From a virus (taxonomy: Duplodnaviria; Caudoviricetes), in the IMG/VR virus record IMGVR_UViG_3300035419_000202, positions 17,596-81,595 of that record: a DNA stretch of 64,000 nucleotides; one strand, 5' to 3'. The notes beneath the pieces are model-generated. The model was not told where the DNA came from, did no database searches, and was given only the letters and a program-made list of their open reading frames with translations. The position numbers and the translations under genes were made by a program. Below are positions 7,115 through 40,107 of the stretch, piece by piece; the first letter of the stretch is position 1; each line of letters starts with the position of its first letter.

Positions 7115-7584
7115 TGGCTACGTATTTTATAAATGAAGTATACGAGTTGTCAGAAGAATTTGTTGACGAATTACACAACGAGTTAGCTTTAGAATTTAGT
7201 AAACACAATCCACATTGTGATCTAAAAAATGCTTTAAGCACATTATACACTGATGTGTTTACATATTTTTTACTTACAATAGATAATAAACCAGTATCAC
7301 TTGTTATAGGTATAGCAGAAGGTGATCAGTTTACTATAGGTGAAATACATAGCATTGCTTATAATGGCTCTAGAGATTACTTGTATGAATCTACATATTT
7401 TGATACATTAAATAATGCATTAATTGAAAGAGGTTTTACCAGTAAAAAATTTATTACCTCTAAAACAGCTAGAGACGATAATTGGATAAGACGTACTTGT
7501 ACTGAACATCCACTTGCTGACAGTTATGCTCCAACGTTAGAAGAAACTGAAACTCATTCAATTTGGACTTGGTCTTTTTCTTGA
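7114..7584 (+). CDS. Hypothetical protein, 156 aa
   Basis: TAATG-coupled to the fibre gene; no recognisable motif. Confidence 0.55.
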   Translation: MATYFINEVYELSEEFVDELHNELALEFSKHNPHCDLKNALSTLYTDVFTYFLLTIDNKPVSLVIGIAEGDQFTIGEIHSIAYNGSRDYLYESTYFDTLNNALIERGFTSKKFITSKTARDDNWIRRTCTEHPLADSYAPTLEETETHSIWTWSFS

Positions 7585-7609
7585 CATTTGACTCCTAAGA
7601 GTGTATAAT
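7581..7609 (+). promoter_or_regulatory. sigma70-type promoter
   Basis: TTGACA (7581) - 17 nt - TATAAT (7604), perfect consensus, at the head of the enzyme cluster. Confidence 0.85.
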
Positions 7610-7635
7610 TACTATTATACCTTTGGAGATGTTGT

Positions 7636-7983
7636 ATGGACGAAAAACTAGCAAAAGCACTTGAAGCAAGCAATCTGCTTGACACAATAAACCAACAAAA
7701 AAAGATACTACAGCAGCAATATGATGCTGATCTAATTCATTATGAAAACGGGTGTCAATTTACATCCAGCAAAGAACTAATCAGTTTTTGTCAAAGTTTA
7801 ACATCTCTCGAACAAGATCAAATTGTTCTTATAGATGACAATGGACTTCCGTCTTTAATAAAAGACTTATCTGCATTTACAAAAAACTTAGTAAACACAT
7901 ATGCAACAGCATCCAACAAATACTTTAATGAATACAACAAATTAAAAAAACAACGTTCTGTTGAAGGTATTTTTAATGACTAA
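7636..7983 (+). CDS. Hypothetical protein, 115 aa
   Basis: GGAG RBS; first gene after the sigma70 promoter. Confidence 0.7.
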   Translation: MDEKLAKALEASNLLDTINQQKKILQQQYDADLIHYENGCQFTSSKELISFCQSLTSLEQDQIVLIDDNGLPSLIKDLSAFTKNLVNTYATASNKYFNEYNKLKKQRSVEGIFND

Positions 7984-8806
7984 AGGTATTCTTGTTTTTG
8001 CACACAACAATGCTGAAATTGATTATGTAAAACAAGCGGCATTTCTTGCCGGTAGAGCAAAACAATATCTTAACTTACCAGTTAGTATTGTAACTGACGA
8101 ACAAAGCATAGGTGATAGATATAAAGATTGGTTTGATAAAATTATTATCAATGATATATCTCAGTCGTCAACTAAAAAACAATATTACAATGGTGCAAAA
8201 ACTCACAGTGTTTTAGAATTTAAAAATGATAATCGTTGCCTAGCATATGATCTTAGTCCGTATGACGAAACAATAATGTTAGATAGTGATTATGTTATAG
8301 CAGATGATATATTTAAAAACTGTTTTGATAGTGCATATGATTTTTTACTCTACAAAGATGCTATAGATATTTGTAGTCACAGAGAAACAAAAGAATTTAC
8401 ACATATTAGCGAAACAAGTGTGGACTTTTATTGGGCAACGTGTGTGTTTTTTAGAAAAACAAAATTAAACAAATGCTTCTTTGAATTAATACAGCATATA
8501 CAAGAATATTATCAGCACTATAGAAGTGTTTACAATATACAGTCAACAACATATCGTAATGATTTTGCATTCAGTATTGCAATTCATATAATGAATGGAT
8601 TTAAAAAAGGGGACTTTGCAAAAAGAATGCCTGGTAAGTTATTTTATACAGCAGATAGAGATATATTACACTCCATAGACGGAGATAAGTTTATCTTTCT
8701 CTTACAACGTACAGGCTCACTAGACAATTTTAACCCTTGTAAGTTTCAAGGCAACAGTGTGCATGTAATGAATAAGTACACGTTGGAGGATAATTTAAGT
8801 GCCTAA
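7976..8806 (+). CDS. GT-A fold glycosyltransferase (GT8-like)
   Basis: Probable start MTKGILVFAHN at 7976; PYDETIMLDSDY DxD motif; YWAT.VFF, RNDFAFSIA. Confidence 0.65.
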   Translation: MTKGILVFAHNNAEIDYVKQAAFLAGRAKQYLNLPVSIVTDEQSIGDRYKDWFDKIIINDISQSSTKKQYYNGAKTHSVLEFKNDNRCLAYDLSPYDETIMLDSDYVIADDIFKNCFDSAYDFLLYKDAIDICSHRETKEFTHISETSVDFYWATCVFFRKTKLNKCFFELIQHIQEYYQHYRSVYNIQSTTYRNDFAFSIAIHIMNGFKKGDFAKRMPGKLFYTADRDILHSIDGDKFIFLLQRTGSLDNFNPCKFQGNSVHVMNKYTLEDNLSA

Positions 8807-9635
8807 TTTTATACTAGTTGCTCAGAACACTCTAGAAGTAGATTATGTAAAACAAGCGTGTGCCCTTGCAATGAGCATACATGCAACTACACCTAATAGC
8901 AAAATTAGCATACTTACTGATGACGATGTACCTGTAAAGTACAAAAAATTGTTTGATAATATAATTGAAATACCATGGGGTGATCTAGCAAACAAATATG
9001 ATTGGAAAATACACAATAGATGGAAGACATATTTTGTTTCACCATACGAAGACGCAATAGTGTTAGACACAGATATGCTTGTACTTGAAGATATTACATC
9101 TTGGTATGAATATCTACAACAGCATGATGTGTTTTTAACGTCTACTGTTTATGATTACAGAGGCAATAAAATTACAGATACCTTTTATAGGAAAAATTTT
9201 GTAAAGCATAATTTGCCTAACACATATATGGGACTACATTACTTTAAGAAAAGTGATTTTGCACTAGAATTTTATACATGGTTAGATACTATTACAAACA
9301 ATTGGAAAGAATTTTATAAACTAGGCGGCGAAAAACCAATACAAAACTTTGCAAGCATGGATCTTACAGCGGCGATGACTGTAGATATACTTGATTGCAA
9401 ATCAAAAGTTACTAACGAAAAAGTAACTGTGCCTAGTTTTACTCATATGAAAGCCAACATACAGGGTTGGGAAGAGCTTAGAGAGAGTTGGCAGACTAAA
9501 GTTGGTACTTACTTTACTGACGAAGGTGAGTTGTATATTGGACAATATAAACAAAGCGGAATATTTCATTACACAGAAGATGATTTTTTAACTGATGATA
9601 TCATTCAAGTGTTAGAAAAAAGGATAGACTTATGA
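8799..9635 (+). CDS. GT-A fold glycosyltransferase (GT8-like), paralog of the upstream gene
   Basis: SPYEDAIVLDTDML DxD motif; DYVKQA shared with the upstream gene; C-terminal FHY. Confidence 0.65.
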   Translation: MPNFILVAQNTLEVDYVKQACALAMSIHATTPNSKISILTDDDVPVKYKKLFDNIIEIPWGDLANKYDWKIHNRWKTYFVSPYEDAIVLDTDMLVLEDITSWYEYLQQHDVFLTSTVYDYRGNKITDTFYRKNFVKHNLPNTYMGLHYFKKSDFALEFYTWLDTITNNWKEFYKLGGEKPIQNFASMDLTAAMTVDILDCKSKVTNEKVTVPSFTHMKANIQGWEELRESWQTKVGTYFTDEGELYIGQYKQSGIFHYTEDDFLTDDIIQVLEKRIDL

Positions 9636-10207
9636 TTGTTTTAGAAACACCTACATTTGAGATAATATACAAAGTATATTTTGATAAACAAACAGGCAAT
9701 ATTAAGTCTATTTCAAATGTAGAACAAGATATAGAAGACTTTTTTGTAGCAGATATCGAAGATGTTCGTCCTTTTTTAAAGGGAATTAAAGATATTACAA
9801 AACATAAAGTTATGTATGATGTAAAAACATCAGCATATGTAATAGTTGATAAGTTTAAAAAGATAGAGTCAGATGTAAATGACAACGTATACAAAATCTT
9901 ACCTCAAGATAATGCACAGGTAATTGTGTCTTATAACAAATCTAAAAATGTTTGGAATGTGTCTTTATCAGACAAAGCAATTAACGAATTATCTTCTAAA
10001 AAAGAGCGTATCGATCAACTGTTAAAGTTTAGTATCACCCAAAAGAATAACCCCAATATTTTGCATGAGTATTTTACCACAACTGTAAAAAAGTTGTTGG
10101 ATAATCCCCAGTCATTTGACAGCCAGAGTCGGTATGATTTTGACAAATTTAGTGTATATACTAATAGGAAGTTCCAAAAGTATTCGTGCGAGGTAGTTAA
10201 TGAATAA
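9632..10207 (+). CDS. Hypothetical protein, 191 aa
   Basis: ATGA-coupled ORF within the operon. Confidence 0.65.
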   Translation: MIVLETPTFEIIYKVYFDKQTGNIKSISNVEQDIEDFFVADIEDVRPFLKGIKDITKHKVMYDVKTSAYVIVDKFKKIESDVNDNVYKILPQDNAQVIVSYNKSKNVWNVSLSDKAINELSSKKERIDQLLKFSITQKNNPNILHEYFTTTVKKLLDNPQSFDSQSRYDFDKFSVYTNRKFQKYSCEVVNE

Positions 10208-11090
10208 AATTAAAATCATTGATCAGGATATTATCTTTTTATCCTACGATGAACCCAATGCTGAAAAAAACTATGCCGATTTATGTAACAAGTTGCCTTG
10301 GGCAAAGCGTGTACACGGTGTAGATGGGTCAGATGCTGCACATAAAGCATGTGCAGACCTAAGTGAAACAGAATATTTTGTTACTGTTGATGGCGATAAC
10401 ATAATTGACACTGAATTCCTGCAACAAGAAATTGATATTGAAAAATTAGGAGTCACACCTGACCACGTTTTTAGTTGGTGCGGCAATGTTCATGTAAATG
10501 GACTAATGTACGGTAATGGTGGACTAAAGTTATGGACACGTAAGTTTGTTCATAACATGAAAACACATGAAAACAGCGATGCTAATGATACAGCAGGCTT
10601 AGTAGAATTCTGTTTTGATGAAAAATATTACCAATTCAACGACAACTACAGTACAAGTTACACAAACGCTACTCCGTTTCAAGCATGGAGAGCAGGTTTT
10701 CGTGAAGGTGTTAAAATGAGCCTAAATGAAGGTGCAAAACATGTTGATGTAAAAAACATTTGGTGGCAAAATTTAGACAGATTGCGTATTTGGTGTAGTA
10801 TTGGTGCTGATGTAGAAAATGGTAACTGGAGTATGCTTGGTGCAAGGATGGGTTGCTATATGACTATGTGTACAGATTGGGATTATACAAATGTACGTGA
10901 TTTTAAATACCTAACTAATTACTGGAAAGATGAAAAAGTTGCTGACTTAGATGTTAGTTCTGAGTTGTTTAGGTACGGCAATCTTATACGGTCAGAACTA
11001 AATTTAGAAATTGCTGACATAGACGCACTAGGAAGTAAATTTTTCAAAAGTGTATATCATAATACTCCAAGGATTATTAAAAAGAGATGA
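10200..11090 (+). CDS. GT-A-like glycosyltransferase
   Basis: FLSYDEPNAE, VHGV.G...AHKA, FVTVDGDN (DxD); homologous to the last domain of 18215..19894. Confidence 0.6.
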   Translation: MNKIKIIDQDIIFLSYDEPNAEKNYADLCNKLPWAKRVHGVDGSDAAHKACADLSETEYFVTVDGDNIIDTEFLQQEIDIEKLGVTPDHVFSWCGNVHVNGLMYGNGGLKLWTRKFVHNMKTHENSDANDTAGLVEFCFDEKYYQFNDNYSTSYTNATPFQAWRAGFREGVKMSLNEGAKHVDVKNIWWQNLDRLRIWCSIGADVENGNWSMLGARMGCYMTMCTDWDYTNVRDFKYLTNYWKDEKVADLDVSSELFRYGNLIRSELNLEIADIDALGSKFFKSVYHNTPRIIKKR

Positions 11091-12463
11091 ACACTGAATT
11101 AATTAGGATTAAGGAGATAATGCCAGGGCTCGAAAGAGAAACATCGCCTACTTTTTGTTTGGCTAAATGGCATCATGTAACAATCTACTTACAAACTGGT
11201 GAAACACATAGTTGTTATCATCCTGCTCCACACAAGATTCCGTTAGAAGGGCTGGAGCAAAATCCTAGTCAACTACATAACACTCCACAAAAAAAGCAAG
11301 AAAGACTTGCTATGCTTAACGGGCAGAAACCAAGTGGATGTCAATATTGCTGGAACATAGAATGTATGGGCAAAGACTATGTTAGTGACAGACATATAAA
11401 AACAACTAGCATTTATACTCCTGAACGCATTGAAGAAATAAAAAATAATCCTTGGGATTACGATATAAACCCTGAATATATTGAAGTTAACTTTAGTAAT
11501 GAATGTAACTTTAAATGCGGCTATTGTCATCCTAAATTTAGTAGTAGATACTACAGCGAAATAAAACAAAACGGTCCATATAGTAACAGTACAGAACATC
11601 GTAATGACATTGATTGGTTTGAATTGTATGAAGAAGATACTAACCCTTATGTAGACGCATGGTGGAAATGGTGGCCTGAAGTAAGCAAGACACTAAACAT
11701 TTTGCGTGTAACTGGCGGCGAGCCTTTGATGCATAAAAGCACATGGCGCCTGTTTGACGAACTAGAACAAAATCCTAAACCTCATTTAAATATTGAACTT
11801 AATAGTAATATGGGTGTTAAGCCTGCAATGGTATATAGGTTAGTGGAACGTGTAAAAGATCTAAAAGAAAAAGGTTGCATCAATAGTTTTAAATTATACA
11901 CAAGTATCGACACTTGGGGTAAACGTGCAGAATACACACGTACAGGACTAGACGTTGAACTATGGGAACGTAACTTAGATTACTATCTTACAGCAACAGG
12001 TTGGCCTGTAACATTTATGGTTACATTTAACTTATTTGTAGTTACAAGTTTTGATAGTTTGTTAGAAAAAATATTAGAATGGCGTAAAAAGTATAACACA
12101 GATGAAAATGAAACTCAGTGGCAACGTGTAAGATTTGATACACCGTATTTAAAAGAGCCACTACAATTTGATATGAATATTTTACCCAAAGACGAGTTTT
12201 TACCTTACATGGAAAAACATCTTAAATTTATACAAGATAATACTGATGACAAAGACCGAACAAAATTTAGTTCTTTAGAGTATGAAAGATTTAGGCGTGT
12301 AATAGACTACATGAAAAATACAGAATATGACCAAGATAAAATTATAAACGGTATGCGTAACTTCTATTCGTGGTTTTCAGAATATGACCGAAGAAGAAAA
12401 ACTAATTTAGTAGAAACATTTCCTGAGTTAGAAAAATTTTATAAGGATTGTAGTAATGTCTAA
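11087..12463 (+). CDS. Radical SAM enzyme with N-terminal Cys-rich domain
   Basis: CNFKCGYC (CX3CX2C), TGGEP; N-terminal FCLAKW...SC...CQYC. Confidence 0.9.
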   Translation: MNTELIRIKEIMPGLERETSPTFCLAKWHHVTIYLQTGETHSCYHPAPHKIPLEGLEQNPSQLHNTPQKKQERLAMLNGQKPSGCQYCWNIECMGKDYVSDRHIKTTSIYTPERIEEIKNNPWDYDINPEYIEVNFSNECNFKCGYCHPKFSSRYYSEIKQNGPYSNSTEHRNDIDWFELYEEDTNPYVDAWWKWWPEVSKTLNILRVTGGEPLMHKSTWRLFDELEQNPKPHLNIELNSNMGVKPAMVYRLVERVKDLKEKGCINSFKLYTSIDTWGKRAEYTRTGLDVELWERNLDYYLTATGWPVTFMVTFNLFVVTSFDSLLEKILEWRKKYNTDENETQWQRVRFDTPYLKEPLQFDMNILPKDEFLPYMEKHLKFIQDNTDDKDRTKFSSLEYERFRRVIDYMKNTEYDQDKIINGMRNFYSWFSEYDRRRKTNLVETFPELEKFYKDCSNV

Positions 12464-13730
12464 AACTTTAAGTTTTGCATACAAATGGTGCGGACCTAAA
12501 TGGCCAATAACTAACAATAGAGTGCCTACACTAGCAGACATAAATCATGCTATGAATGAAGGACACATAGATGATGATGTACAAGCGCCAGTAGTGTTTC
12601 AGTCATTTGAAAACAAAGAAATTATTTCTGCATTTGAGATTCCGCAAGACAAAAAGTATTTTTACGAATTAAATTTTACATCGTATTATTATAGAGATTG
12701 GACAAAACTTTTTAGTACTACTGATGGACCATTTGTTAATAATCCTCCTACTTCTACAGTTAGAGATCAAATACAGAATGGTAATGGATACGTACTTGTT
12801 ACTATTCCATTTGAAGGTTGGGCAACGCCTAAACATTGGGAAGTAATGACACGATTTTTTAATCATTATGAAATACCTTTAGACAAAGTTGTTTATTTTA
12901 CTAATTGTGCTAACGGCCAAGAGTTATATAATAAATGGGCAAATGGCACAGTAGGTCCTAAAATAAATGTAGAGTATTTCCCTACATTTAAAGTACATAG
13001 AACAAACGTAGAGCAAACACTTCTCAAAGAAGAACCTTATAAAGTGGGACCAAGAGAAAAAGACTTCTTGTGTTTTCAACGTAGATACAGCGATCATAGA
13101 CTTTCTTTTTTTATTAAAATGTTTAAAAGAAACTTACTTGATAAATTTTATATGAGTATGGATAGTAAACAACCAGAGTCAGGCCGATCATTTGAAAGTA
13201 ATGTTGATTACCTTATAAAACGTTATCCTAATTTAGGTATAGCCCAAGAAGATATTGCACCTAGTAAAAGCAAACTACCGTTAGTACTAGATAATCCAAA
13301 CTTTAACAGTTATCCTATGGAGGCAACTGAAGAGTCGATAGAACATTTTTTCAAAAACAGCCTAATAAATATTATTAGTGAAACTTTTTTCTTTACTGAT
13401 GAAATACACATTACAGAAAAAACTTATAAGCCTATTGCATATAAACAACCATTTATAATGATGGGTGCAAAAGGAAGTTTACAACACATAAAAAACATGG
13501 GATTTAAAACATTTGACCAGTGGTGGTCAGAAGATTATGATAATATTGCTGATCCTGTAGAACGTATAAACAGGATTTGTGACGTAGTACATATAATATC
13601 AGGTTGGTCTGATCTAGTAAAATTACAGTTTACAAAAGAAGTAGCAGAGATAGTTGAATATAATTTTAATCTTTTAAAAACAATACCTAATACTGAATTA
13701 GATTTAATAACAGAAAAATATGGAAACTAA
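12456..13730 (+). CDS. Glycosyltransferase-like protein (GT10/GT-B-related C-terminal domain)
   Basis: SLINIISET...ITEKTYKPIAYKQPFI..G motif resembles the GT10 donor-binding ENS...YITEK segment. Confidence 0.5.
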   Translation: MSKTLSFAYKWCGPKWPITNNRVPTLADINHAMNEGHIDDDVQAPVVFQSFENKEIISAFEIPQDKKYFYELNFTSYYYRDWTKLFSTTDGPFVNNPPTSTVRDQIQNGNGYVLVTIPFEGWATPKHWEVMTRFFNHYEIPLDKVVYFTNCANGQELYNKWANGTVGPKINVEYFPTFKVHRTNVEQTLLKEEPYKVGPREKDFLCFQRRYSDHRLSFFIKMFKRNLLDKFYMSMDSKQPESGRSFESNVDYLIKRYPNLGIAQEDIAPSKSKLPLVLDNPNFNSYPMEATEESIEHFFKNSLINIISETFFFTDEIHITEKTYKPIAYKQPFIMMGAKGSLQHIKNMGFKTFDQWWSEDYDNIADPVERINRICDVVHIISGWSDLVKLQFTKEVAEIVEYNFNLLKTIPNTELDLITEKYGN

Positions 13731-14700
13731 AATGAAAAAGAAAATACTAGTATGTGGAGCAGGCGGCTTCATAGGACATCACCTAGTTAATAAACTAGTT
13801 GAACAAGGACATTATGTAATAGGTGCAGATATAAAACAACCTGCTTTTGAACCTACAAAGGCACAAGAATTTTTTCAAGTAGATTTACGTAATCCAGACT
13901 TTGTTGCTGGTTGTGTAAAAACTGACCTAGATGAAGTGTACCAACTTGCGGCAGATATGGGCGGAACAGGATATATTGGCATTGGTGATCATGACAGTGA
14001 TATTATGCATAACAGTGCGTTAATAAATTTAAATGTATTGCATGAAGCAACTAAAAAAGGTATTAAAAAAATACTTTACACAAGTAGTGCATGTGTATAT
14101 CCTGAACGTAATCAGTTAGATCCTGACAATCCTTTTTGCGAAGAAAGTAGTGCGTATCCAGCAGAGCCTGATACAGAATACGGATGGGAAAAATTGTTTA
14201 GTGAAAGACTGTATCTAACACACAAGAAAAACTATGACATTGATGCAAAAGTTGTAAGACTACATAATGTATTTGGTCCACTTGGAAGTTGGGAAGATGG
14301 TAAAGAAAAAGCACCTGCGGCACTATGTCGTAAAGTTGCTGAAAGCGACGGTACTGTAGATATATGGGGACCAGGAAATCAAACTAGAAGTTTCTTGTAT
14401 ATAGAAGAATGTATTACAGGCTTACAAAAAATTATGGCAAGTAATATTGATCAACCAGTAAACCTTGGTAGCGAAAGAATGATTTCTATCAATGATCTAG
14501 CACAACTTATAGGTCAAATTGCTGGTAAGAATACTTTAGAAATTAACAATGTAGATGGTCCAATTGGAGTGATGGGTAGAACCAGTCATAACAATCTTAT
14601 TGAAGAATTACTTGGCTGGCGACCCGGCGAAGATTTAGAGTATGGACTTAAACATACCTATGCATGGATAAAGGATAAAGTTGATGAGCGTACACAGTAA
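13720..14700 (+). CDS. NAD-dependent epimerase, GDP-mannose 3,5-epimerase-like
   Basis: GAGGFIG, YQLAADMGG.GYI, SSACVYPE, YGWEKLFSE, EKAPAALCRK are signature segments of the GME subfamily. Confidence 0.85.
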   Translation: METKMKKKILVCGAGGFIGHHLVNKLVEQGHYVIGADIKQPAFEPTKAQEFFQVDLRNPDFVAGCVKTDLDEVYQLAADMGGTGYIGIGDHDSDIMHNSALINLNVLHEATKKGIKKILYTSSACVYPERNQLDPDNPFCEESSAYPAEPDTEYGWEKLFSERLYLTHKKNYDIDAKVVRLHNVFGPLGSWEDGKEKAPAALCRKVAESDGTVDIWGPGNQTRSFLYIEECITGLQKIMASNIDQPVNLGSERMISINDLAQLIGQIAGKNTLEINNVDGPIGVMGRTSHNNLIEELLGWRPGEDLEYGLKHTYAWIKDKVDERTQ

Positions 14701-16472: not shown

Positions 16473-16479
16473 AGGATCT

Positions 16480-18194: not shown

Positions 18195-18208
18195 AAAAGT
18201 AGTATAAT
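18180..18208 (+). promoter_or_regulatory. sigma70-type promoter
   Basis: TTGACT (18180) - 17 nt - TATAAT (18203); ATG follows 6 nt after the -10 box with no SD, so possibly a leaderless mRNA. Confidence 0.75.
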
Positions 18209-18214
18209 AACAAG

Positions 18215-30328: not shown

Positions 30329-30354
30329 GACTAAACACACTCCTTAAAAACTAG

Positions 30355-30370
30355 CATAAGTATATTTAAC
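30355..30370. promoter_or_regulatory. Back-to-back late-promoter-like motifs
   Basis: CATAAGTA on + (30355-62) abuts GTTAAATA on - (30363-70) in the gap between divergent genes. Confidence 0.5.
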
Positions 30371-30396
30371 ACTACAGGGTAAAGAAAAAAGTAAAC

Positions 30397-31098: not shown

Positions 31099-31099
31099 A

Positions 31100-33278: not shown

Positions 33279-34014
33279 AGTTCTGCAACCTTCTCAAGTT
33301 GACTTGTCAGTTTTAGAAAGTTTAGAATGGGACATTATAATATTAGATAAAAAAATAGATGTTGAAAATTTACAACATTGGTATAATATTGTTATATCTA
33401 ATTTAGACTACTTAAAATTTAATTTTCAAACATGCTCTGAGTACATAAAAGAATCTGTTAATAATAAATTTACTACTGATACAAATGATTATGAATGGGA
33501 ACGTAACAAAACCTACGAAGCATTAATTAATTCGTGGACATTAACTTGGCCAGCTCACAGAGATGTACCACTTCCGCCTCCTTGGGCTGCTGACATAGAC
33601 TTTTTTACAGAATTAAAAAGTTACTTTGACAATAACGGTAATGTTATAAAGGACTTTGATTATAAAGATAATATATATCTTAGTCAATATAATTTTGGAG
33701 AATGGAAATCTATAGTAGAAGAAGTAGGCAACTATATTTACAATCCGCGTATTACACAACACCTGCCTGAACACATACTTCATCCGCACACAGATGGATA
33801 CTGTGCTAGACTACACATTCCTATGACATATGATAATAGCAAATTTTACTGGGGAGAAAAATGGAACAGAGAATATAATTTTGAACCAGGAAATATTTAC
33901 ATTATAAATTCTAGAGTTACGCACTCTACTACAAACTTTAGTCCTACATCAAGGGCAAATGTAATTGCTGATATACATAATAATAAATTTATGGATTTAG
34001 TAAATTGGAAATGA
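33271..34014 (+). CDS. Asp/Asn beta-hydroxylase-like 2OG-Fe(II) oxygenase
   Basis: PHTD...LHIPM...THSTTN...RANVI. Confidence 0.8.
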   Translation: MDKVLQPSQVDLSVLESLEWDIIILDKKIDVENLQHWYNIVISNLDYLKFNFQTCSEYIKESVNNKFTTDTNDYEWERNKTYEALINSWTLTWPAHRDVPLPPPWAADIDFFTELKSYFDNNGNVIKDFDYKDNIYLSQYNFGEWKSIVEEVGNYIYNPRITQHLPEHILHPHTDGYCARLHIPMTYDNSKFYWGEKWNREYNFEPGNIYIINSRVTHSTTNFSPTSRANVIADIHNNKFMDLVNWK

Positions 34015-34658
34015 AACGATATATAGAAGAACATCAAACAGTTGATTTAGGTTTTGACGTTAAACGTATATTTTGTGTTGATGTAAAAAAGTTACAGGAC
34101 TGGTATAATGATCTACAAGGAAATTACAAAGATTGGAAATTTGTTGTAGGAGAAAATCATCATGTGTGGCAGTTTCCAATTAGTGACCCTACTGGAGAGA
34201 CTGGACATATTATACCTGACGAAACTGGTTACTATACGTTATGCTGGAATAGTGACGAAGAAGGTCCTAAACCTTTTGAGCAAGGATGTGCAAAGCCAGA
34301 GTATAGAGACAATGACAACGATGAATTGAATCCTAGAAAATGTTTTACAGGATACGGATTAGACGTTGTAAAAAGTCTACCTTTTCGTAGTAAAAAATGG
34401 TTAGTAACTGAGCATGTAACTGGAACTAAATTGATCACACATCAAGATAGTCCTGATAAAATTAGAGTACATATTCCTATACACACTAACAAAGATAGTA
34501 ATTGGATTATAAACGGTAAAGAATATCATATGGAACCAGGTTGGGCATATCTTGTAAACACAACACTTCCTCATAGTGTTGAAAACAAAGGCACAACAGA
34601 CAGAGTACACCTTTATGGTAAAGTGTGGACTGAGGACGTAAAAGCATGGTTAATGTAA
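34005..34658 (+). CDS. Asp/Asn beta-hydroxylase-like 2OG-Fe(II) oxygenase
   Basis: THQD...RVHIPI...PHSVEN...RVHL. Confidence 0.8.
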   Translation: MEMKRYIEEHQTVDLGFDVKRIFCVDVKKLQDWYNDLQGNYKDWKFVVGENHHVWQFPISDPTGETGHIIPDETGYYTLCWNSDEEGPKPFEQGCAKPEYRDNDNDELNPRKCFTGYGLDVVKSLPFRSKKWLVTEHVTGTKLITHQDSPDKIRVHIPIHTNKDSNWIINGKEYHMEPGWAYLVNTTLPHSVENKGTTDRVHLYGKVWTEDVKAWLM

Positions 34659-35071
34659 AAACATATGCAATGAAAGATATGCACCCTATACCTAACAACG
34701 AATATCTTATTGGTATACACAGTAATGGTAATTGGATACATTCTGAGCCTGTTATGGCAGATGCAGATAATGTTTTAAATTTAAAATTTGAGGATGTTGA
34801 AAAGACAGGTTTAAAAGCAATCAAGTGGTACAATAACACACAACGAATAATACATGCTACAGCATGTAGCGATAAACAAGCAAAACAAATTATATATTTT
34901 GTACGCAAGATTCCTAAAAATGCAACACTACATGTATATTGTGCAAAAGGACAATCAAGAAGTGTTGCTGTTGCCAACTACGTTAAAAAGCATTATAATA
35001 ACGAAACAATAGATGACAGTGGTCATAACAAACATGTTTATAGTCTATTAGAAAGGTATCATGATGTTTGA
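34646..35071 (+). CDS. CX5R phosphatase (PTP/dual-specificity-like)
   Basis: HVYCAKGQSRSVAVA P-loop. Confidence 0.75.
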   Translation: MVNVKTYAMKDMHPIPNNEYLIGIHSNGNWIHSEPVMADADNVLNLKFEDVEKTGLKAIKWYNNTQRIIHATACSDKQAKQIIYFVRKIPKNATLHVYCAKGQSRSVAVANYVKKHYNNETIDDSGHNKHVYSLLERYHDV

Positions 35072-36236
35072 TTTTGATATTAAAGAATTACCTAACTTTA
35101 AATTTTCGTTGCAAGAACTAAAAGACTATTATGCTAAAGTATCTCAGTATGACAATTTAAAGTGGCAACCAGATAGTACAAATACATTAGATCACAAAGT
35201 AAATGATGTATACAGTTGGGCTATACAAAGTAATTTAAAGGATGCTACAAAGCCTTGTCCACCGTATGACATTAAACATGATACTGAAGTATTAGGCACG
35301 TTTGATAACCCTACAGAGCTTGTATTTGGTTTTGGCAAGTATATTGTAGATGCAATACCCGATGTTAGGCAAACAGTTATAAGTGCCCATCCACCTAATA
35401 CAGTTATACAACAACATATAGATAATACTGAGTTTGTAAAAGTACATATACCTATACAGACAAATGATCAAAGTTATTTTGTATTTGGCGATTCAAAGTA
35501 TAATTTACAAGAGGGTAAAGCATATCTTATTAATACTACTAATCAACATGGAACAATTAACCAAGGCGATACAGACAGAATACATTTAATATTTAAAATA
35601 CCTATCGACAATGTAGATGAACTACTAAACACAGATTGGATATTAGATCCAGCCCAAATAAACTTTGATTGTAAAAAAATAGAAAATGTAAAATTTAATT
35701 TTGATGAACTTAAAGAATACTATAATGACCTTGTAGATAATTTTGACTACTTGAAATGGACAATGCCTGAAGTTTCAGGAACTAATCTTGAAGGATTATA
35801 TGGTTACGCAATATTAACTAATTGTGAAAACGTAGACGAACGTCCATTACCTCCGGGTATGCGTAAAGACAAAAAAGCATTTGATCCTATTATAAAACCT
35901 ACTAAGATGCTCAAAGGGTTTGCTAAAAAACTATATGATCAAATTCCTTATATAGAAGAATTAGTAATTACTGGACATCCTCAAAATTCAGGAATACCCC
36001 CGCATGCAGATAAAGATGAACATGTAAGAGTACATATTCCGTTGTATGCTAATAACGATTCGCATTTTATTATTAACGAACACCCGTATGTATTAGAACC
36101 TAATAATGTTTACATTGTAAATACAAAACGCATACACACTACAATTAACAAAGGCTCTACAGATAGAATCCATTTACATTTTAAAATTCCCATAGGAAAA
36201 ATAAATATTTTTTTAAGGACACAAATAAACGTATGA
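35061..36236 (+). CDS. Tandem two-domain Asp/Asn beta-hydroxylase-like oxygenase
   Basis: QHID...VHIPI...QHGTIN..DRIHL and PHAD...VHIPL...IHTTIN..DRIHL. Confidence 0.8.
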   Translation: MMFDFDIKELPNFKFSLQELKDYYAKVSQYDNLKWQPDSTNTLDHKVNDVYSWAIQSNLKDATKPCPPYDIKHDTEVLGTFDNPTELVFGFGKYIVDAIPDVRQTVISAHPPNTVIQQHIDNTEFVKVHIPIQTNDQSYFVFGDSKYNLQEGKAYLINTTNQHGTINQGDTDRIHLIFKIPIDNVDELLNTDWILDPAQINFDCKKIENVKFNFDELKEYYNDLVDNFDYLKWTMPEVSGTNLEGLYGYAILTNCENVDERPLPPGMRKDKKAFDPIIKPTKMLKGFAKKLYDQIPYIEELVITGHPQNSGIPPHADKDEHVRVHIPLYANNDSHFIINEHPYVLEPNNVYIVNTKRIHTTINKGSTDRIHLHFKIPIGKINIFLRTQINV

Positions 36237-37339
36237 ATATAATTATTGTAGGCGGCGGAACAGCAGGTTGGATGACAGCCTCATACCTTTCTAAAAAGAC
36301 TGACTGGGATATTACAGTTATCCAAAGTCAAGATATACCTATAATAGGTGTAGGTGAAAGTACACTGCCTAGTATGTATGACTTTATACATGATTGCGGA
36401 TTAACTGAGCAAGACTTATTTGATAATTGCAATGCGGTTCGTAAGTATACAATTAAACATAAAAACTGGCACGGCGAAAGTTGGTTCCATCATTTTTGTT
36501 TTGATGAAACAGAACACGACGAACAAATGCGTTGGATGGAAAATTACGAGTTGCCAAATAAAAAATGGCGTCATGCATATCATATAGATGCAAATAAATT
36601 TGGTATTATGTTGCGTGATAAAGTAGCATTGCCAAATGGTGTTAAATTAGAAACACGTACATTAGATAATATTGATGATTTACAAGCAGACTTGATTATT
36701 AATTGTACAGGATTTAATAAATTATTTCCTCAAAGAGAAATGGTTAGTACACGTCTTAAAAATAATTGTGCTGTAGTAGCACCTAGTTATGATAAAGAGT
36801 TAAAATACTACACAGAAACAACTGCTATGAGTAACGGGTGGATGTGGAATATTTATTTACAAAATCGTATTGGTAATGGTTATGTGTTTAGTACAGAACA
36901 TCAAACAGTTGACGATGCTAAACGCGAGTTTATCGAAACATGTCCTTATAATCTTGAACTAGATAAAATGCGAGTATTACACTGGGAAAGTAAATATTGC
37001 CCAACACCGTATCAAGATAACATACTAAACATAGGGCTGAGTGCTGGATTTATTGAGCCTTTAGAAGCACAAGCAATTTGGCTAATACAATATCAGATTG
37101 AAATGCTAGTTAAACTATATGGTAAACAAAAAGTTTACAATAGACAATATGTTAAGATTGTAAAACATATTGAAGATTTTCTTGCATTGCATTATGAAGC
37201 AACAAGTAAGAATACACCATACTGGCAAAATGAAGTAAAAGAAATTGAAATTAAAAAGAAACCGTTTACTATTTTTGACGAATATAGTTTTAGGTGTTTA
37301 GCGAACGGTTACGCTCTTCCATATACTTTGAAACATTAA
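36233..37339 (+). CDS. Flavin-dependent (tryptophan-halogenase family) halogenase, compact
   Basis: GGGTAGW, IGVGEST, AVRKYTIKHKNW (position of the catalytic Lys), GWMWNI (WxWxI), GFIEPLEA. Confidence 0.85.
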   Translation: MNIIIVGGGTAGWMTASYLSKKTDWDITVIQSQDIPIIGVGESTLPSMYDFIHDCGLTEQDLFDNCNAVRKYTIKHKNWHGESWFHHFCFDETEHDEQMRWMENYELPNKKWRHAYHIDANKFGIMLRDKVALPNGVKLETRTLDNIDDLQADLIINCTGFNKLFPQREMVSTRLKNNCAVVAPSYDKELKYYTETTAMSNGWMWNIYLQNRIGNGYVFSTEHQTVDDAKREFIETCPYNLELDKMRVLHWESKYCPTPYQDNILNIGLSAGFIEPLEAQAIWLIQYQIEMLVKLYGKQKVYNRQYVKIVKHIEDFLALHYEATSKNTPYWQNEVKEIEIKKKPFTIFDEYSFRCLANGYALPYTLKH

Positions 37340-37835
37340 TACGCCACAAGTTCTGCGGAACATTGTATAACTCCATCCTACGATCTAAAGTCCAAATTCC
37401 TGTTTTAGCAAGCATTGGCATAATAGTATTGTTTATACGTTGGCTTTTGCCGCCGTCGTTGTTAATGTTAGTACTAATATAAAGTTCTGCGTTAGGATTT
37501 TTAGTTGCCCAATCAATCTGTATAGGCAATAGATAACTTAACTGTATTCCAGTTTTAAATATATTTCTACCAGTGCCTAACGTATAGCCTGGTAATTGTG
37601 CGCCTCTAAATAATAGTCTATAAGCATCAGGACTAACTTCAGGAAGTTTGTGAGCACCAGCAATACTTACAATACGGTCTTGGTCAAATGCTGCACACCA
37701 AAACGGACACCAGTCCCATTTCATTTTTTCTAAAGAAGTATTGTTACTATAAGACTGAGAATTACAGAATATCTCAACAGCACCTCTGTCAGTTTTAGAT
37801 AATGTTCTAAACGTCAGTCTTCCAAGTTTTTCCAT
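37290..37835 (-). CDS. Hypothetical protein, possibly GNAT-fold
   Basis: IVSIAG...YRLLFRGAQLPGY...G pattern; weak similarity by eye only. Confidence 0.45.
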   Translation of the reverse strand: MEKLGRLTFRTLSKTDRGAVEIFCNSQSYSNNTSLEKMKWDWCPFWCAAFDQDRIVSIAGAHKLPEVSPDAYRLLFRGAQLPGYTLGTGRNIFKTGIQLSYLLPIQIDWATKNPNAELYISTNINNDGGKSQRINNTIMPMLAKTGIWTLDRRMELYNVPQNLWRINVSKYMEERNRSLNT

Positions 37836-38475
37836 TTGCTTCTTTTCTTCTATGTGAGAATGTCATTGTGCTTGTATCAAAAATATCACCTGTAGCTCTA
37901 CCATTTATTATTGCTTCACCTAAAGAAGATGTTGCTGTTACAGGGTGAAACATTATATGATCATCTGTTGGTCGATTATGCAAATCAAAACTAGGACTAT
38001 CATAACCTATAAGAATAGGCGGAGGAAACTCAGTCATGCCATACCAGTTTGCTACACACTGTACACCTCTATTTTTAAATGCATTTATAAAGTCTTGATC
38101 TATTTTATTACTACCTGTTACCATGTAACGTACACAACTCATATCTAAGTCTTTAAAGCCTTTTGTACTTTGTAAAAGCTCTAAATGACGCGGTATAAGC
38201 GCAATATAAGACGGTTGTAAGCGTTTAAATGCTTGTATGTACGTATATGGTGTAAAGTTGCTACAAACGTACTGTGCGCCGCTTAAAACGCTAGGATACG
38301 CTGTTATAGTCCAATGTGCAATAGTATTAGCAGGAAACACATCTAATACAACATCCTTGCTGGTTAGTTGTATTTCTTTAGCACTACGTCTAGCACATTC
38401 ATTAATGTATTCCCAAGAGTGTGTTATTTGTTTAGGTTCATCTGTACTACCTGATGTGTAAAGTGTTATACTCAT
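37807..38475 (-). CDS. Minimal AMP-binding (ANL) adenylation enzyme
   Basis: YTSGSTDEPK P-loop, YGMTE, TGD; only 222 aa. Confidence 0.75.
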   Translation of the reverse strand: MSITLYTSGSTDEPKQITHSWEYINECARRSAKEIQLTSKDVVLDVFPANTIAHWTITAYPSVLSGAQYVCSNFTPYTYIQAFKRLQPSYIALIPRHLELLQSTKGFKDLDMSCVRYMVTGSNKIDQDFINAFKNRGVQCVANWYGMTEFPPPILIGYDSPSFDLHNRPTDDHIMFHPVTATSSLGEAIINGRATGDIFDTSTMTFSHRRKEANGKTWKTDV

Positions 38476-39287
38476 AGTAGTCTATCCTTTAATATATCTG
38501 CTGTATGTTTATGTACACCTATACCTGGATGGCCTGATATAGTACCGTTTTGTTTACAAATATCTCTAGCAAATTTTTTATTGTTATCGTCAATACCTAA
38601 TAGATCAATATCAATACGTATAATAGGCAAAGTAGTAGGAAAATAACTAAACATTGTTAATGGTATGTTGTTAGTTTTACAAAATACTTCTAACATGTTT
38701 ACGTATATTTCTGCTTCGTTTTGTAAGAAGTCAGTGCGTTCTAGTAATTCATAAGGTTCTACATAATTGCATTTAGGCCTATGACCGCCAGTAAATGTAA
38801 GAGCAAAATTATCTGTAAGAAATGTATATCCGTGTGCAGGCGGAAATTCAAAACATGCACTTTTTGGAGCACCGTGTAAGTTTACATAATTAAAAAATGA
38901 TATAACTTGTAGTTTAGTGCTGTATGTAGGACCAGCATAACTTAGCATAGGTGTGTCTAGTTCTTTAGACAATATATCAGTGTACCTATCTTTCTCGTCT
39001 ACACCAATACCTAAAGTATAACTTGTGCCACTAAAATAAATTAAGTCTTTAGTTAAATCCACTTCATTAGACATACGTAATCCTAAACTGTTAAAGTTGT
39101 AATTAATCTCTTTGCTATTGTATATCCAACTATTATCTTGATATTTTTTGTTACGCTCGTGTAGTCTTTCGTTATCAGGTCCGTAGTAATTAGAACTTGT
39201 ATTAGGAATCATACTGTCGTGTTGATACGGCCAGTCAGTCTTTTTGTAAGGAATACAAGTATTCAATCTTGTTTTAATATTAGTCAT
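38472..39287 (-). CDS. SGNH/GDSL-hydrolase-like protein
   Basis: FSGTSYTLG (block I G.S) and C-terminal GHPG...H. Confidence 0.55.
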   Translation of the reverse strand: MTNIKTRLNTCIPYKKTDWPYQHDSMIPNTSSNYYGPDNERLHERNKKYQDNSWIYNSKEINYNFNSLGLRMSNEVDLTKDLIYFSGTSYTLGIGVDEKDRYTDILSKELDTPMLSYAGPTYSTKLQVISFFNYVNLHGAPKSACFEFPPAHGYTFLTDNFALTFTGGHRPKCNYVEPYELLERTDFLQNEAEIYVNMLEVFCKTNNIPLTMFSYFPTTLPIIRIDIDLLGIDDNNKKFARDICKQNGTISGHPGIGVHKHTADILKDRLL

Positions 39288-40050
39288 TGTATGTAATATG
39301 AGTTTTGCTTTTTAATAATCTATCTACAGCATCATTTGATGGATCAGAGTGTAACAATATCCATTCATCATCGCCGTGGTTTACAGGAGCATGTACATTG
39401 CTAACATTAACTAGATAAACTTCACCGGGCTTAGGATTATAACTTGCACGTTCGTATTGCCAAGTGTCAGCAGGTGTTTCCCCTAACTGTGAAAAGAAAT
39501 GCCATGATGAATCCTTATTAGTTTCTAAATTAACATGTAACCTAATCATATGCTCTGACATATCTTCACCGTCGTGATCTCGATGAGGACCTATACCTGC
39601 TTCAGTGCCGCAATTCATAGCTCTACCCCAGGTCCATGCATCTTGTCCTAAGGTTTCAACCATATTTTTATATGCACCAAAATAATATTGATCTAAATGA
39701 TTGTTCATTCCACTTTCCCAAGTAGAAACTTCTAATTCAGGAAACTTTTCTTTATCACAAAACATTGGTCCTGGTATAGGATCTGTTCTTTGTACAGGCC
39801 ATTGTAAAGTCCAATAACCAGCATCCCCTACACAGATGCCGTTCATTCTAGGGTTTTCTAAGAAATGTGATTGGAATAAATCTTTCATAGAAAACAAAAA
39901 TAGACTTTCGGGAGAAGTAGTTTTTACAGTTTCAAACCATTCTAGTAAAGGTTTAGGATCTACAGTAACATTTAACTTTACCATATCCCAGTCTAAGTTT
40001 CTTAAATCTTCTCTAGTATAGTTTTGTGGATCTGTAATTATTTTGGTCAT
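39280..40050 (-). CDS. Asp/Asn beta-hydroxylase-like 2OG-Fe(II) oxygenase
   Basis: PHRD...RLHVNL...VHAPVN; WTLQWP..R.DP.P shared with 32529 and 33271. Confidence 0.8.
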   Translation of the reverse strand: MTKIITDPQNYTREDLRNLDWDMVKLNVTVDPKPLLEWFETVKTTSPESLFLFSMKDLFQSHFLENPRMNGICVGDAGYWTLQWPVQRTDPIPGPMFCDKEKFPELEVSTWESGMNNHLDQYYFGAYKNMVETLGQDAWTWGRAMNCGTEAGIGPHRDHDGEDMSEHMIRLHVNLETNKDSSWHFFSQLGETPADTWQYERASYNPKPGEVYLVNVSNVHAPVNHGDDEWILLHSDPSNDAVDRLLKSKTHITYND

Positions 40051-40052
40051 AA

Positions 40053-40095: not shown

Positions 40096-40107
40096 AAAGT
40101 AATGTGA

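Follow-up and report, generated by a model that had tools for sequence, protein, structure and literature searches.

The DNA analysed here, hereafter the window, is a 64,000-nucleotide stretch of IMG/VR virus record IMGVR_UViG_3300035419_000202 and corresponds to bases 17596-81595 of one linear virus contig of 81.6 kb without a terminal repeat. Window positions 7636-40050 hold a 32 kb island of enzyme genes consisting of 37 open reading frames (ORFs), g01-g37, nearly all with overlapping stop and start codons. A first-pass annotation had described about 35 contiguous, mostly overlapping genes at this site, bounded by tail or fibre genes on both sides, and had proposed that they build and attach a complex decoration to virion proteins; the number and packing of the genes were borne out. 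Genes were annotated by Pfam, NCBIfam and PDB searches, by paralogy (blastp) and by structure prediction for two proteins (g05 and g07), and the assignments are collected in Table 1.

The enzyme classes that had been counted were largely recovered. Seven glycosyltransferase (GT)-like genes were recognised by fold, profile or paralogy (g02, g03, g05, g07, g09, g12 and g13C, the C-terminal domain of g13). The g05 model matched GT-A enzymes with Z 9-10 (Foldseek and VIA), and its structural neighbours include A64R, which glycosylates the capsid of PBCV-1. The fold matches of the g07 model are the generic GT-B enzymes Gsy2p, OtsA, SdgB and MshA. For g07, g09 and g12, modelling and paralogy support the GT-B fold alone and membership in GT10 is not demonstrated, as no Pfam or PDB profile match to GT10 was obtained and none of the fold matches listed is named GT10. 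Both nucleotide-sugar enzymes were also found. The alignment of g08 with GDP-mannose 3,5-epimerase (GME) spans residues 7-323, the next class of short-chain dehydrogenase/reductase, UDP-glucuronate decarboxylase, scores only ~1e-26, and g08 is predicted to supply GDP-L-galactose/L-gulose. The second enzyme, the NDP-sugar dehydrogenase g16, lacks part of its N-terminal domain and the whole C-terminal domain and is still 75-84% conserved in close relatives; full-length NDP-sugar dehydrogenases (394-397 aa) occur in distant relatives at another island position (L061:11522-12706 and L066:13624-14817). A capacity of the island to make activated sugars and to transfer them is thus supported by sequence matches and predicted folds.

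Six radical S-adenosylmethionine (rSAM) genes carry the CxxxCxxC motif, as first claimed (g06, g15, g17, g19, g21 and g25), and three of them, g06, g19 and g25, exceed the cutoff of 170 bits for the N-terminal-twitch rSAM family NF033640 over the full model (322, 410 and 219 bits). The nine iron- and 2-oxoglutarate-dependent (Fe/2OG) oxygenase genes expected are likewise present. In addition to g10 and g14 they comprise seven locally expanded AspH/LpxO-type cupins of PF05118 (g20, g26, g28, g29, g30, g32 and g37), which are joined by Pfam matches and paralogy and retain HxD...H in all eight cupin domains. The most conserved protein of the island is g20 (68-95%), whose best cultured-phage match is an Asp_Arg_Hydrox protein of Pelagibacter phage Mosig (35%). 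Pfam scans of the 37 proteins gave no JmjC or Cupin_8 match that would indicate JOR/JmjC oxygenases of the MINA/No66 type, of which remote members could escape such scans.

The halogenase g33 retains GxGxxG, a lysine aligned with the PyrH motif lysine that we take to be catalytic, WxWxIY (a proline-to-tyrosine change in WxWxIP) and EPLE. It lacks the C-terminal tryptophan-binding module, and its alignments stop near residue 416-444 of enzymes of 511-550 aa. Compared with the cyanophage halogenase VirX1 (PDB 6qgm, 531 aa), with which it shares the flavin-binding and catalytic motifs, g33 (368 aa) is missing the C-terminal module as well as some of the substrate-binding region. The kinase-like g24, the phosphatase motif of g31 and the two propeller-like proteins g22 and g23 were seen as annotated. 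The adenylation enzyme stood in part, since g35 matches PF00501 and is truncated to motifs A3-A7; the same length (222 aa) at 67-97% identity in relatives argues against a recent pseudogene. Two assignments of the first-pass annotation were not verified. Of the two proposed methyltransferases, g11 has a weak match (E=0.022) and g18 a motif of Rossmann type, and the supposed SGNH protein, g36, has no match.

Searches among the remaining proteins yielded little. The first ten unannotated island proteins gave two weak PHROG matches, both to families of unknown function, and lenient Pfam searches (E up to 5) of ten unknown proteins returned sub-threshold hints only. PDB sequence-profile searches with the g07 and g05 families, g18 and g34 gave nothing usable, and a tblastn search with g27 found no match among cultured phages. 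No transmembrane segment was detected in any of the 37 proteins by a hydrophobic-segment criterion for helices, and Pfam and transmembrane scans of the same genes revealed no Wzx, Wzy, initiating transferase or exporter, an absence that fits soluble acceptors. As judged from these sequences, the island is predicted to work in the cytoplasm of the infected cell with all steps soluble. A cluster for a ribosomally synthesised and post-translationally modified peptide (RiPP) was considered and rejected. No precursor-like ORF was found, the gaps containing no small ORFs and g01 and g04 being conserved over their full length, and all rSAM matches to RiPP maturase models fell far below the cutoffs, for example at 20-30 bits against 300-700.

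Two protein-seeded scans of IMG/VR yielded 58 loci, and regions of 46-54 kb were rebuilt from four long contigs of different metagenomes (G001, G002, G003 and G005; 152, 268, 185 and 99 kb). In all four relatives the island lies between f02/f03 and h01-h04 in identical order and orientation, so that the expectation that it stays beside fibre genes while varying in content was upheld. The same gene order and junctions in four independent, diverged contigs also exclude a host-derived chimeric assembly. Across the four relatives the island shows 50-97% amino acid identity. About 25 genes keep their order, and g01-g06, the GT-A half of g13, g15, g17-g27, g30 and g33-g35 are conserved at 50-95%. 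Variation is concentrated in the fibres f04/f05, the g07-g12 block, the single genes g10, g14, g16 and g36, and the copy number of the g28/g29/g37 paralogs. No tblastn match to g10 was obtained in any of the four relative regions, that of the close relative G001 included; g14 had no match in these regions and is present in another locus, L017; and g36 is absent from G002 and G003, with a weak partial match elsewhere in G005.

The content between g06 and g13 differs between relatives in a defined way. G002 and G005 carry a full-length NDP-sugar dehydrogenase and a GT-B-like gene on the other strand, and G005 additionally has a piece of a DegT-type aminotransferase, which identifies this slot as a swappable nucleotide-sugar cassette. 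The DegT/DnrJ/EryC1 match in G005 (L066:12060-12650) covers the first ~95 profile positions in a 196-aa ORF, and the adjoining same-strand ORF (L066:11383-12063, 226 aa) has no Pfam match; the gene may be truncated or split. Fibre genes f04/f05 are present only where g07-g12 are present, in a small and phylogenetically non-independent sample.

Part of the island was also found in a cultured phage. ORF347-354 of the Ralstonia jumbo phage RsoM2USA (MG752970.1) are colinear with g01, g02, g03, (g04), g05, g06, g13C and g18 at 32-46% identity, in the order f03-like fibre, g01, g02, g03, a g04-sized ORF, g05, the rSAM gene g06, a g13C-like GT-A gene and g18. Among cultured phages, tblastn matches to g05 (46%, RsoM2USA_350) and g02 (36%, RsoM2USA_353) occurred in RsoM2USA only, and no homolog of either was found in XacN1, Atu_ph07 or Phosso. 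The RsoM2USA core lies immediately 3' of the virion genes ORF356/359/361 and the baseplate wedge gene ORF362; the ORF356/359/361 products are virion proteins confirmed by mass spectrometry, and all eight core genes were annotated as hypothetical and left undiscussed (PMC8504454). RsoM2USA has the eight-gene core only and is without the sugar cassette, rSAM block, cupin array and halogenase of the window. Four layers can accordingly be distinguished in the window: an old core colinear with RsoM2USA (g01-g06, g13C and g18), the swappable sugar cassette (g07-g12), a multi-rSAM block (g15-g25) and a cupin-hydroxylase/halogenase array (g26-g37). The match of g13 to g05 covers residues 331-530, and RsoM2USA_348 is 41% identical. 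The N-terminal 330 aa of g13 (18215-19200) consist of tandem repeats sharing the pattern YD..F....Y...... W..W.NV, and orthologs in G002, G003, G005 and RsoM2USA match the GT-A half only.

The flanks were as annotated, with a solidly fibre and structural left side (a tail-fibre PHROG, a tail-collar domain, a 1162-aa glycine-rich protein and a 4615-aa ORF) and one fibre-like gene, h01, on the right, followed by h03 and h04 and, further downstream, the DNA polymerase. On the left, f02 is 48-85% identical in all four relatives, and f03 is homologous to RsoM2USA_355. A full-length f04 homolog occurs in the window and G001 only, the partial matches in G002, G003 and G005 being short (11-16% of f04 length), and f05, a possible fibre chaperone, co-varies with f04. 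In h01 the N-terminus is kept and the C-terminus is variable, with only the N-terminal 15% conserved in G002 and G003. G+C content is 0.31-0.37 in the island (window 8001-40000), below the 0.37-0.40 of the fibre and replication flanks.

Upstream of the window (G000:C1:226-14073, L069) lies the single 4615-aa ORF, with a weak CBM_5_12 match, followed by a 206-aa ORF, a 692-aa tail-collar protein and further structural proteins; together with the tail-collar gene it suggests a giant structural or fibre protein ahead of the fibre genes of the window. On the other side, h03 and h04 stand directly past the fibre-like h01/h02 and are 68-85% conserved in all relatives.

The nearest relatives of the DNA polymerase are those of jumbo myoviruses (Sinorhizobium phage Phosso, 50%; Agrobacterium phage Atu_ph07, 45%), with 42% identity to Rak2-like E. 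coli jumbo phages. A megablast search with the left flank gave no nucleotide match among 50,697 phage records. The related contig G002 (268 kb) is rated 75% complete, which suggests a genome of roughly 350-355 kb. From its sequence, the carrier of the island is assigned to a lineage of uncultured aquatic jumbo myoviruses with a polymerase similar to those of Atu_ph07 and Phosso.

Two kinds of promoter were recognised in the window. Perfect sigma70 consensus sites (TTGACA-17-TATAAT) number five, compared with 0.23 in dinucleotide-model simulations (maximum 2), and seven of the twelve sites with a score of at least 11/12 overlap the intergenic 3.5% of the sequence (P about 4e-6). The -10 element of the g01 promoter is kept in G001, G002 and G003, and the fourth relative has a terminator hairpin there. 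On the replication side, a 12-bp GC-rich terminator hairpin (44100-44073) immediately precedes the 44061 promoter. Judging from these sites, one class of phage genes appears to depend on the sigma70 RNA polymerase of the host. The T4-late-type motif TATAAATA is strongly depleted in the window (2 sites against 10.4 expected). One copy precedes f02, and the second (20714-20721) lies inside g15, ~215 nt upstream of an 82-aa alternative-frame ORF (20931-21179). Weaker xTAAATA motifs occur ahead of h01, g37 and g25. Based on these motifs, g01-g21, the half with GT, sugar and rSAM genes, would form early-type units apart from the fibre operon, and the minus-strand island units may be late.

Table 1 Features of the window. 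Coordinates are window positions.
Feature	Coordinates	Strand	Assignment	Evidence or remark
f01	2-1033	+	C-terminal part of 608-aa virion structural protein, start upstream of window	PHROG 30158/6002
TATAAATA motif	1034-1041	+	T4-late-type promoter motif	37 nt before f02; conserved before f02 in G001
f02	1078-2577	+	Tail-fibre protein	PHROG 19602 tail fiber 1.3e-15
f03	2588-3601	+	Fibre protein	Paralog of f04 N-terminal third, blastp 5e-78
f04	3626-7114	+	Glycine-rich fibre protein, 1162 aa	Gly_rich_2 weak match
f05	7114-7584	+	156-aa protein after f04	No family match
Promoter	7581-7609	+	Perfect sigma70, extended -10	12/12; 51-bp f05-g01 gap
g01	7636-7983	+	Conserved non-enzymatic protein, 115 aa, operon head	No family; RsoM2USA_354 33%
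g02	7961-8806	+	GT8-like (glycogenin-type) GT-A	Profile vs PDB glycogenin E=6e-4; invariant DxD
g03	8799-9635	+	GT8-like	Paralog of g02, blastp 2e-10; RsoM2USA_352 36%
g04	9632-10207	+	Conserved protein, 191 aa	No significant family; alignable with RsoM2USA_351
g05	10200-11090	+	GT-A / nucleotide-diphospho-sugar transferase fold	DGD motif; AF2 pLDDT 87
g06	11087-12463	+	rSAM, N-terminal twitch	NF033640 4e-96; RsoM2USA_349 36%
g07	12456-13730	+	GT-B fold glycosyltransferase	AF2 pLDDT 68; Foldseek prob 1.0 to GT-B enzymes
g08	13720-14700	+	GDP-mannose 3,5-epimerase	phmmer 4.6e-87 to Arabidopsis GME 2c59
g09	14681-15799	+	GT-B	Paralog of g07, blastp 2e-12; common E..TEK motif block
g10	15792-16472	+	P4H-type 2OG-Fe(II) oxygenase	PF13640 3e-14
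g11	16429-17064	+	Possible class I methyltransferase	Methyltransf_24 E=0.022, below cutoff
g12	17064-18194	+	GT-B	Paralog of g07, blastp 4e-10
Promoter	18180-18208	+	Near-consensus sigma70	11/12; overlaps g12 end and g12-g13 gap; conserved in G001
g13	18215-19894	+	Three N-terminal ~110-aa repeats and C-terminal GT-A domain	blastp 6e-20 to g05
g14	19884-20447	+	2OG-Fe(II) oxygenase	PF13759 1.4e-13
g15	20444-21427	+	rSAM	PF04055 1.2e-10; CxxxCxxC at residue 36
g16	21424-22137	+	Truncated NDP-sugar dehydrogenase, 237 aa	PF00984 7e-16; TIGR03026 residues 68-294 of 413
g17	22127-23116	+	rSAM, C-terminal SPASM	PF04055 and PF13186
g18	23106-23705	+	Conserved Rossmann-like, putative methyltransferase-like	GGWNG..DID motif; no PDB or Pfam relative; RsoM2USA_347 32%
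g19	23698-24993	+	rSAM, N-terminal twitch	NF033640 9e-123
g20	24990-25646	+	AspH/LpxO-type cupin	Paralogy to g26/g30; HxD..H
g21	25643-26566	+	rSAM	PF04055 1.2e-11; paralog of g15, blastp 4e-15
g22	26531-27673	-	Propeller-like repeat protein	Paralog of g23; 6-7 PYG-type repeats
g23	27663-28889	-	Propeller-like (Kelch-like)	Kelch_FKB95 1.4e-4, below cutoff; 8 repeats
g24	28852-29307	-	Small APH/RIO-type kinase-like	RIO1 7e-6, APH 1.2e-4; HGDxxxxN..DWD
g25	29294-30340	-	rSAM, N-terminal twitch	NF033640 8e-65
g26	30397-31098	+	Asp/Asn beta-hydroxylase-type cupin	PF05118 1.4e-13
g27	31100-32569	+	Conserved protein, 489 aa, g26 partner	No Pfam/PHROG/phage match
g28	32529-33278	+	Cupin	PF05118 4.2e-9; HxD..H
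g29	33271-34014	+	Cupin	PF05118 weak; paralog of g28, blastp 6.5e-30
g30	34005-34658	+	Cupin	PF05118 6.6e-11
g31	34646-35071	+	CX5R Cys-phosphatase-like	CAKGQSRS motif; DSPc E=0.039
g32	35061-36236	+	Double cupin, two PF05118 domains	5.6e-23, two stretches; both HxD..H
g33	36233-37339	+	Flavin-dependent halogenase, 368 aa	PF04820 4.5e-72; PyrH 3.8e-45; VirX1 4.9e-44
g34	37290-37835	-	Conserved protein	No family or PDB relative
g35	37807-38475	-	Truncated ANL adenylation core, motifs A3-A7 only	PF00501 2.3e-19, profile 168-330 of 384
g36	38472-39287	-		No family match
g37	39280-40050	-	Cupin	Paralog of g28/g29, blastp 1.4e-23 to g28; HxD..H
h01-g37 gap	40051-40107	-	Inverted AAAAACTCCT/AGGAGTTTTT arms around GTTAAATAC late-like motif	Read from sequence
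h01	40108-41190	-	Fibre-like protein	Mtd_N 8.8e-11; PHROG 677 baseplate wedge tail fiber connector
h03	42695-44002	-	'HNH endonuclease' PHROG	PHROG 1314 4e-109 across all 435 aa
Promoter	44061-44033	-	Perfect sigma70, replication side	Just upstream of gene
h04	44106-45194	-	ATPase PHROG	7.5e-100
Promoter	50387-50359	-	Perfect sigma70, replication side	Just upstream of gene
Site	58260-58232	-	Perfect sigma70 site inside coding sequence	
DNA polymerase	59898-62570	-	DNA polymerase	
Promoter	63230-63202	-	Perfect sigma70, replication side	Just upstream of gene

Homologs of the island were also found in bacteria. An N-terminal-twitch rSAM profile identified 78 loci (L073-L150) in species-representative genomes, mostly in metagenome-assembled genomes (MAGs) of Bdellovibrionota, several of them on contigs of hundreds of kb to Mb and often with several copies per genome. 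Further loci belong to Haliscomenobacter, in which one operon is mostly unannotated, to Legionellales, and to isolates such as Poseidonocella, Paenibacillus and Nitratireductor. Homologs of g05, g15, g17, g18, g19, g20, g21, g25, g26 and g27 co-cluster in the bacterial loci, an arrangement which points to a functional link between the rSAM, GT-A and cupin parts at least. In a Bdellovibrionales MAG (L104:380-2581, 3.04 Mb contig), the two halves of a 733-aa ORF match g26 and g27, a Rosetta-stone fusion suggesting that these two proteins work together. For g05 and g27, the clusters found in the Atlas were mainly viral and had no family assignment; one lead, a 688-aa viral cluster carrying Asp_Arg_Hydrox, is consistent with the g26-g27 fusion. 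A Pfam tally of 119 neighbouring bacterial ORFs was dominated by rSAM proteins (20) and included carbamoyltransferases, methyltransferases and one NDP-hexose 2,3-dehydratase, and no polysaccharide export or flagellin genes were present among the 25 commonest of its 108 families. The NF033640 family is itself concentrated in Bdellovibrionota, where its copies cluster with other rSAM genes, and the NF033640-linked multi-rSAM pathway of this group appears to be uncharacterised.

The first-pass annotation had stated that no characterised equivalent of the island was known. This holds for biochemical characterisation; comparable gene arrays have been described (PMC7029224, PMC2938197). One of them is the host recognition cluster (HRC) of pelagimyophages and cyanomyophages, a 34-45 kb variable island in the structural region, placed between VrlC and gp14, with tail-fibre genes, many GTs, nucleotide-sugar genes and radical SAM cassettes. 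GT8 is its commonest GT family, an Asp/Asn beta-hydroxylase is core to the phages that carry it, and its GTs were read, from gene content, as modifiers of host O-chains (PMC7029224, Zaragoza-Solas et al. 2020). The window shares the arrangement, with fibres f01-f05 and h01 flanking GT, sugar and rSAM genes. It differs in that HRC phages are T4-like Kyanoviridae of ~140-190 kb, whereas the window belongs to a jumbo lineage with an Atu_ph07/Phosso-like polymerase, and in that the HRC is generally hypervariable, whereas the island is a contiguous 32 kb without interspersed fibres and with a conserved core and a defined slot. A similar island of ~15 kb in Pelagibacter phage Mosig (L072, MT647606.1 51355-69954) adjoins tail-fibre genes and contains three rSAM genes ('MoaA'), two Asp_Arg_Hydrox genes, methyltransferases, nitroreductases, a carbamoyltransferase, sugar aminotransferases, a TauD oxygenase and an acetyltransferase (GNAT).

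The cyanomyophage Syn9 carries ten tandem dioxygenases and two halogenases, for which secondary-metabolite synthesis was proposed; in the same study, beta-hydroxylase-type dioxygenases of bacteria were predicted to hydroxylate co-encoded tail-collar or collagen-like proteins (Iyer et al. 2010, PMC2938197). Tandem non-identical Fe/2OG dioxygenases and a flavin halogenase with catalytic lysine in a myovirus genome are common to Syn9 and the window, which has several Fe/2OG families (PF05118 in seven genes, PF13640 and PF13759) and a halogenase with Rossmann motif and lysine. Unlike in Syn9, one PF05118 family dominates in the window, where no JOR/JmjC was detected, and the array is joined to GT, nucleotide-sugar and rSAM modules. 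Viral GTs beside structural genes are also shared with virus-encoded virion glycosylation systems, in which GT-A and GT-B enzymes act in the cytoplasm on virion proteins without recourse to the secretory glycosylation of the host: PBCV-1 (A64R, Vp54), mycobacteriophages, with capsid and tail-tube glycosylation (Freeman 2023, as cited in PMC12619734), and XacN1, a member of the same clade as RsoM2USA (PMC8504454) with at least two virion glycoproteins attributed to phage GTs (PMC5852040). Those systems use a few GTs and are without rSAM, cupin-hydroxylase or halogenase genes. Bacterial O-antigen and capsule clusters resemble the island in nucleotide-sugar enzymes, several GTs, tailoring enzymes and cassette variation between strains; unlike them, the island has no initiating transferase, flippase, polymerase, chain-length regulator, exporter or membrane protein. 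The 'moraphage' paper, on another aquatic lineage, mentions only core GTs (PMC12619734), and a study of virion modifications in marine phages searched for phosphorylation and acetylation only and is uninformative on glycans (PMC12014285).

Given the predicted supply of activated sugars, seven GT folds or GT-like paralogs and the cassette-type variation, the island very probably makes a heavily modified glycan. Its acceptor is a matter of candidates, among which we tentatively favour, at somewhat less than even chances, the virion proteins that recognise the host, glycosylated and tailored in the cytoplasm. The GTs of the island would build a lineage-specific oligosaccharide, and fibres or baseplate proteins of the phage itself would receive it, possibly at side chains that the AspH/P4H-type oxygenases had hydroxylated beforehand. 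Radical C-H chemistry, hydroxylation, phosphorylation, halogenation and acylation would then act on the glycan, on the protein or on both, so that related phages would carry chemically different decorations on their adsorption apparatus. This proposal draws on the position next to fibres, kept in three myovirus lineages (the window and its relatives, RsoM2USA and Mosig), on several families typical of protein modifiers (AspH/P4H hydroxylases, a CX5R phosphatase and propeller scaffolds), on a halogenase without the C-terminal module that binds small substrates, and on the lack of membrane-bound components. Precedents in XacN1, PBCV-1 and mycobacteriophages point the same way, as do the exchange of sugar modules in the g06-g13 slot and, in a small sample, the restriction of f04/f05 to phages with g07-g12. 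Of the decoration pathway first proposed, a contiguous, fibre-linked island with a predicted capacity for sugar activation and transfer has thus been substantiated, with virion proteins as its candidate acceptor.

Several observations weigh against virion proteins as the target. None of the 78 bacterial loci showed a homolog of the window fibres, and of five bacterial genomes tested four had no tail-collar genes and the fifth had them on a different contig. The cassette thus resides in bacterial chromosomes, mostly of Bdellovibrionota, where fibre genes were not found in its vicinity, which indicates that its chemistry is not intrinsically tied to phage fibres. Collagen (GXY) or EGF hydroxylation motifs were not found in the nine structural proteins examined, and at the structural level g05 and g07 match nothing more specific than their fold classes. 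The g01-g12 and g13-g21 units are headed by sigma70-type promoters, as on the replication side, and given the late-type motif at f02 the enzymes may precede the fibres. The GT8 and LpxO-type families are classic modifiers of lipopolysaccharide (LPS). Finally, the location beside fibre genes may just reflect a recombination-tolerant region.

Some of these points fit remodelling of the host envelope, the main rival, which we regard as rather unlikely. The enzymes would act early, at the cytoplasmic membrane face, on host LPS core, O-antigen or capsule intermediates, adding or tailoring sugars (L-galactose, uronic or amino) and hydroxylating lipid A or Kdo, so that superinfection or re-adsorption to infected cells and debris is blocked. 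The early-type sigma70-consensus promoters of both units, the APH/choline-kinase-type motif of g24 and the occurrence of the cassette in bacterial genomes without nearby fibre genes agree with such a role, and GT8 is a typical LPS GT family, just as PF05118 includes the lipid A hydroxylase LpxO. LpxO is membrane-anchored, however, whereas the island cupins are soluble, and the 37 genes encode no membrane protein, initiating phosphoglycosyl transferase, flippase, polymerase or ligase. Modification of LPS is not a known role of enzymes such as the six rSAM proteins, the halogenase or the CX5R phosphatase, and 32 kb would be a very large outlay for exclusion alone. The bacterial neighbourhoods sampled had no polysaccharide export genes among their commonest families. 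In favour of this reading, the authors of the analogous pelagimyophage HRC study prefer O-chain modification (PMC7029224). The recombination-tolerant site suggests a further explanation, that the island is a mosaic of independent modules with no single pathway or substrate. At least five transcription units on both strands with differing promoter types, the coming and going of g10, g14, g16 and g36, and the different partners of the modules (the core in RsoM2USA, the rSAM cassette in Bdellovibrionota, dioxygenases with halogenase in Syn9; PMC2938197) would be expected of a mosaic. We nevertheless consider it improbable, as most modules remain together in the same order in relatives down to ~50% amino acid identity, and g05, g15, g17, g18, g19, g21, g25, g26 and g27 also co-cluster in bacteria.

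Slightly more improbable is a diffusible secondary metabolite, glycosylated, hydroxylated and halogenated and derived from an amino acid or sugar. The tailoring set is natural-product-like, with a halogenase near VirX1/PyrH, an ANL fragment and rSAM enzymes; carbamoyltransferases accompany the homologous bacterial and pelagiphage islands, all island enzymes are soluble, and such a product has been proposed for cyanophage dioxygenase/halogenase arrays (PMC2938197). Pfam and transmembrane scans nevertheless found no non-ribosomal peptide synthetase, polyketide synthase, terpene synthase, ATP-grasp enzyme, carrier protein or exporter, and the adenylation enzyme g35 is without its C-terminal catalytic domain. 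There is no precursor-like peptide, g01 and g04 being conserved end to end, and seven GTs would be excessive for a small molecule. Hypermodification of phage DNA, in which GTs, kinase, oxygenases and rSAM enzymes would decorate bases against restriction, seems highly improbable. Early-type promoters would suit it, and phage GT-A and GT-B enzymes, kinases and rSAM enzymes are known in base hypermodification pathways (Pyle et al. 2024, as cited in PMC12619734). Against it, Pfam and NCBIfam searches revealed no TET/JBP oxygenase, P-loop 5-hmdU kinase, hydroxymethylase or DNA-binding domain; the oxygenases are of AspH and P4H types, g24 is APH/RIO-like and not a P-loop kinase, and the fibre-side position is conserved in three myovirus lineages. 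The bacterial loci also admit a bolder proposal, to which we give a low probability: that a mobile cassette of g05, the N-terminal-twitch rSAM genes, g15/g17/g21, g18 and g26 with g27, common to jumbo phages and bacteria (above all predatory Bdellovibrionota), installs an undescribed radical-SAM-tailored glycan on surface adhesins or fibres, and so represents a new protein glycosylation class of agents that recognise Gram-negative cell surfaces.

That 2OG oxygenase, halogenase, radical SAM and GT arrays lie by the fibre genes of marine myoviruses is a general phenomenon already published in the 2010 and 2020 papers cited above. New here are its occurrence in a jumbo phage, the division into layers with a defined slot for sugar genes, the finding of a colinear core in a phage in culture, the Bdellovibrionota-rich bacterial cassette with its g26-g27 fusion, and the promoter dichotomy. 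To our knowledge, nobody has shown the product or target of such marine myovirus arrays, and the island, as an unusually complete and well-ordered example, makes this old question experimentally approachable. The eight-gene core resides in the cultured, plaque-forming RsoM2USA, in which deletion and virion mass spectrometry are feasible, and Mosig is a second cultured system in which such islands could be tested. The slot makes a specific prediction, namely L-galactose/L-gulose on the product of GME-bearing phages and uronic or amino sugars on that of dehydrogenase- or aminotransferase-bearing relatives. The bacterial homologs, in turn, point to an uncharacterised multi-rSAM pathway common in Bdellovibrionota. 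If host-envelope components proved to be the target, the island would represent a large viral programme rewriting the cell surface. If the target were virion proteins, no virus-encoded system for protein modification known in phages would be more elaborate, and the consequences would extend to host range, to the evasion of decoys that mimic receptors and to phage engineering.

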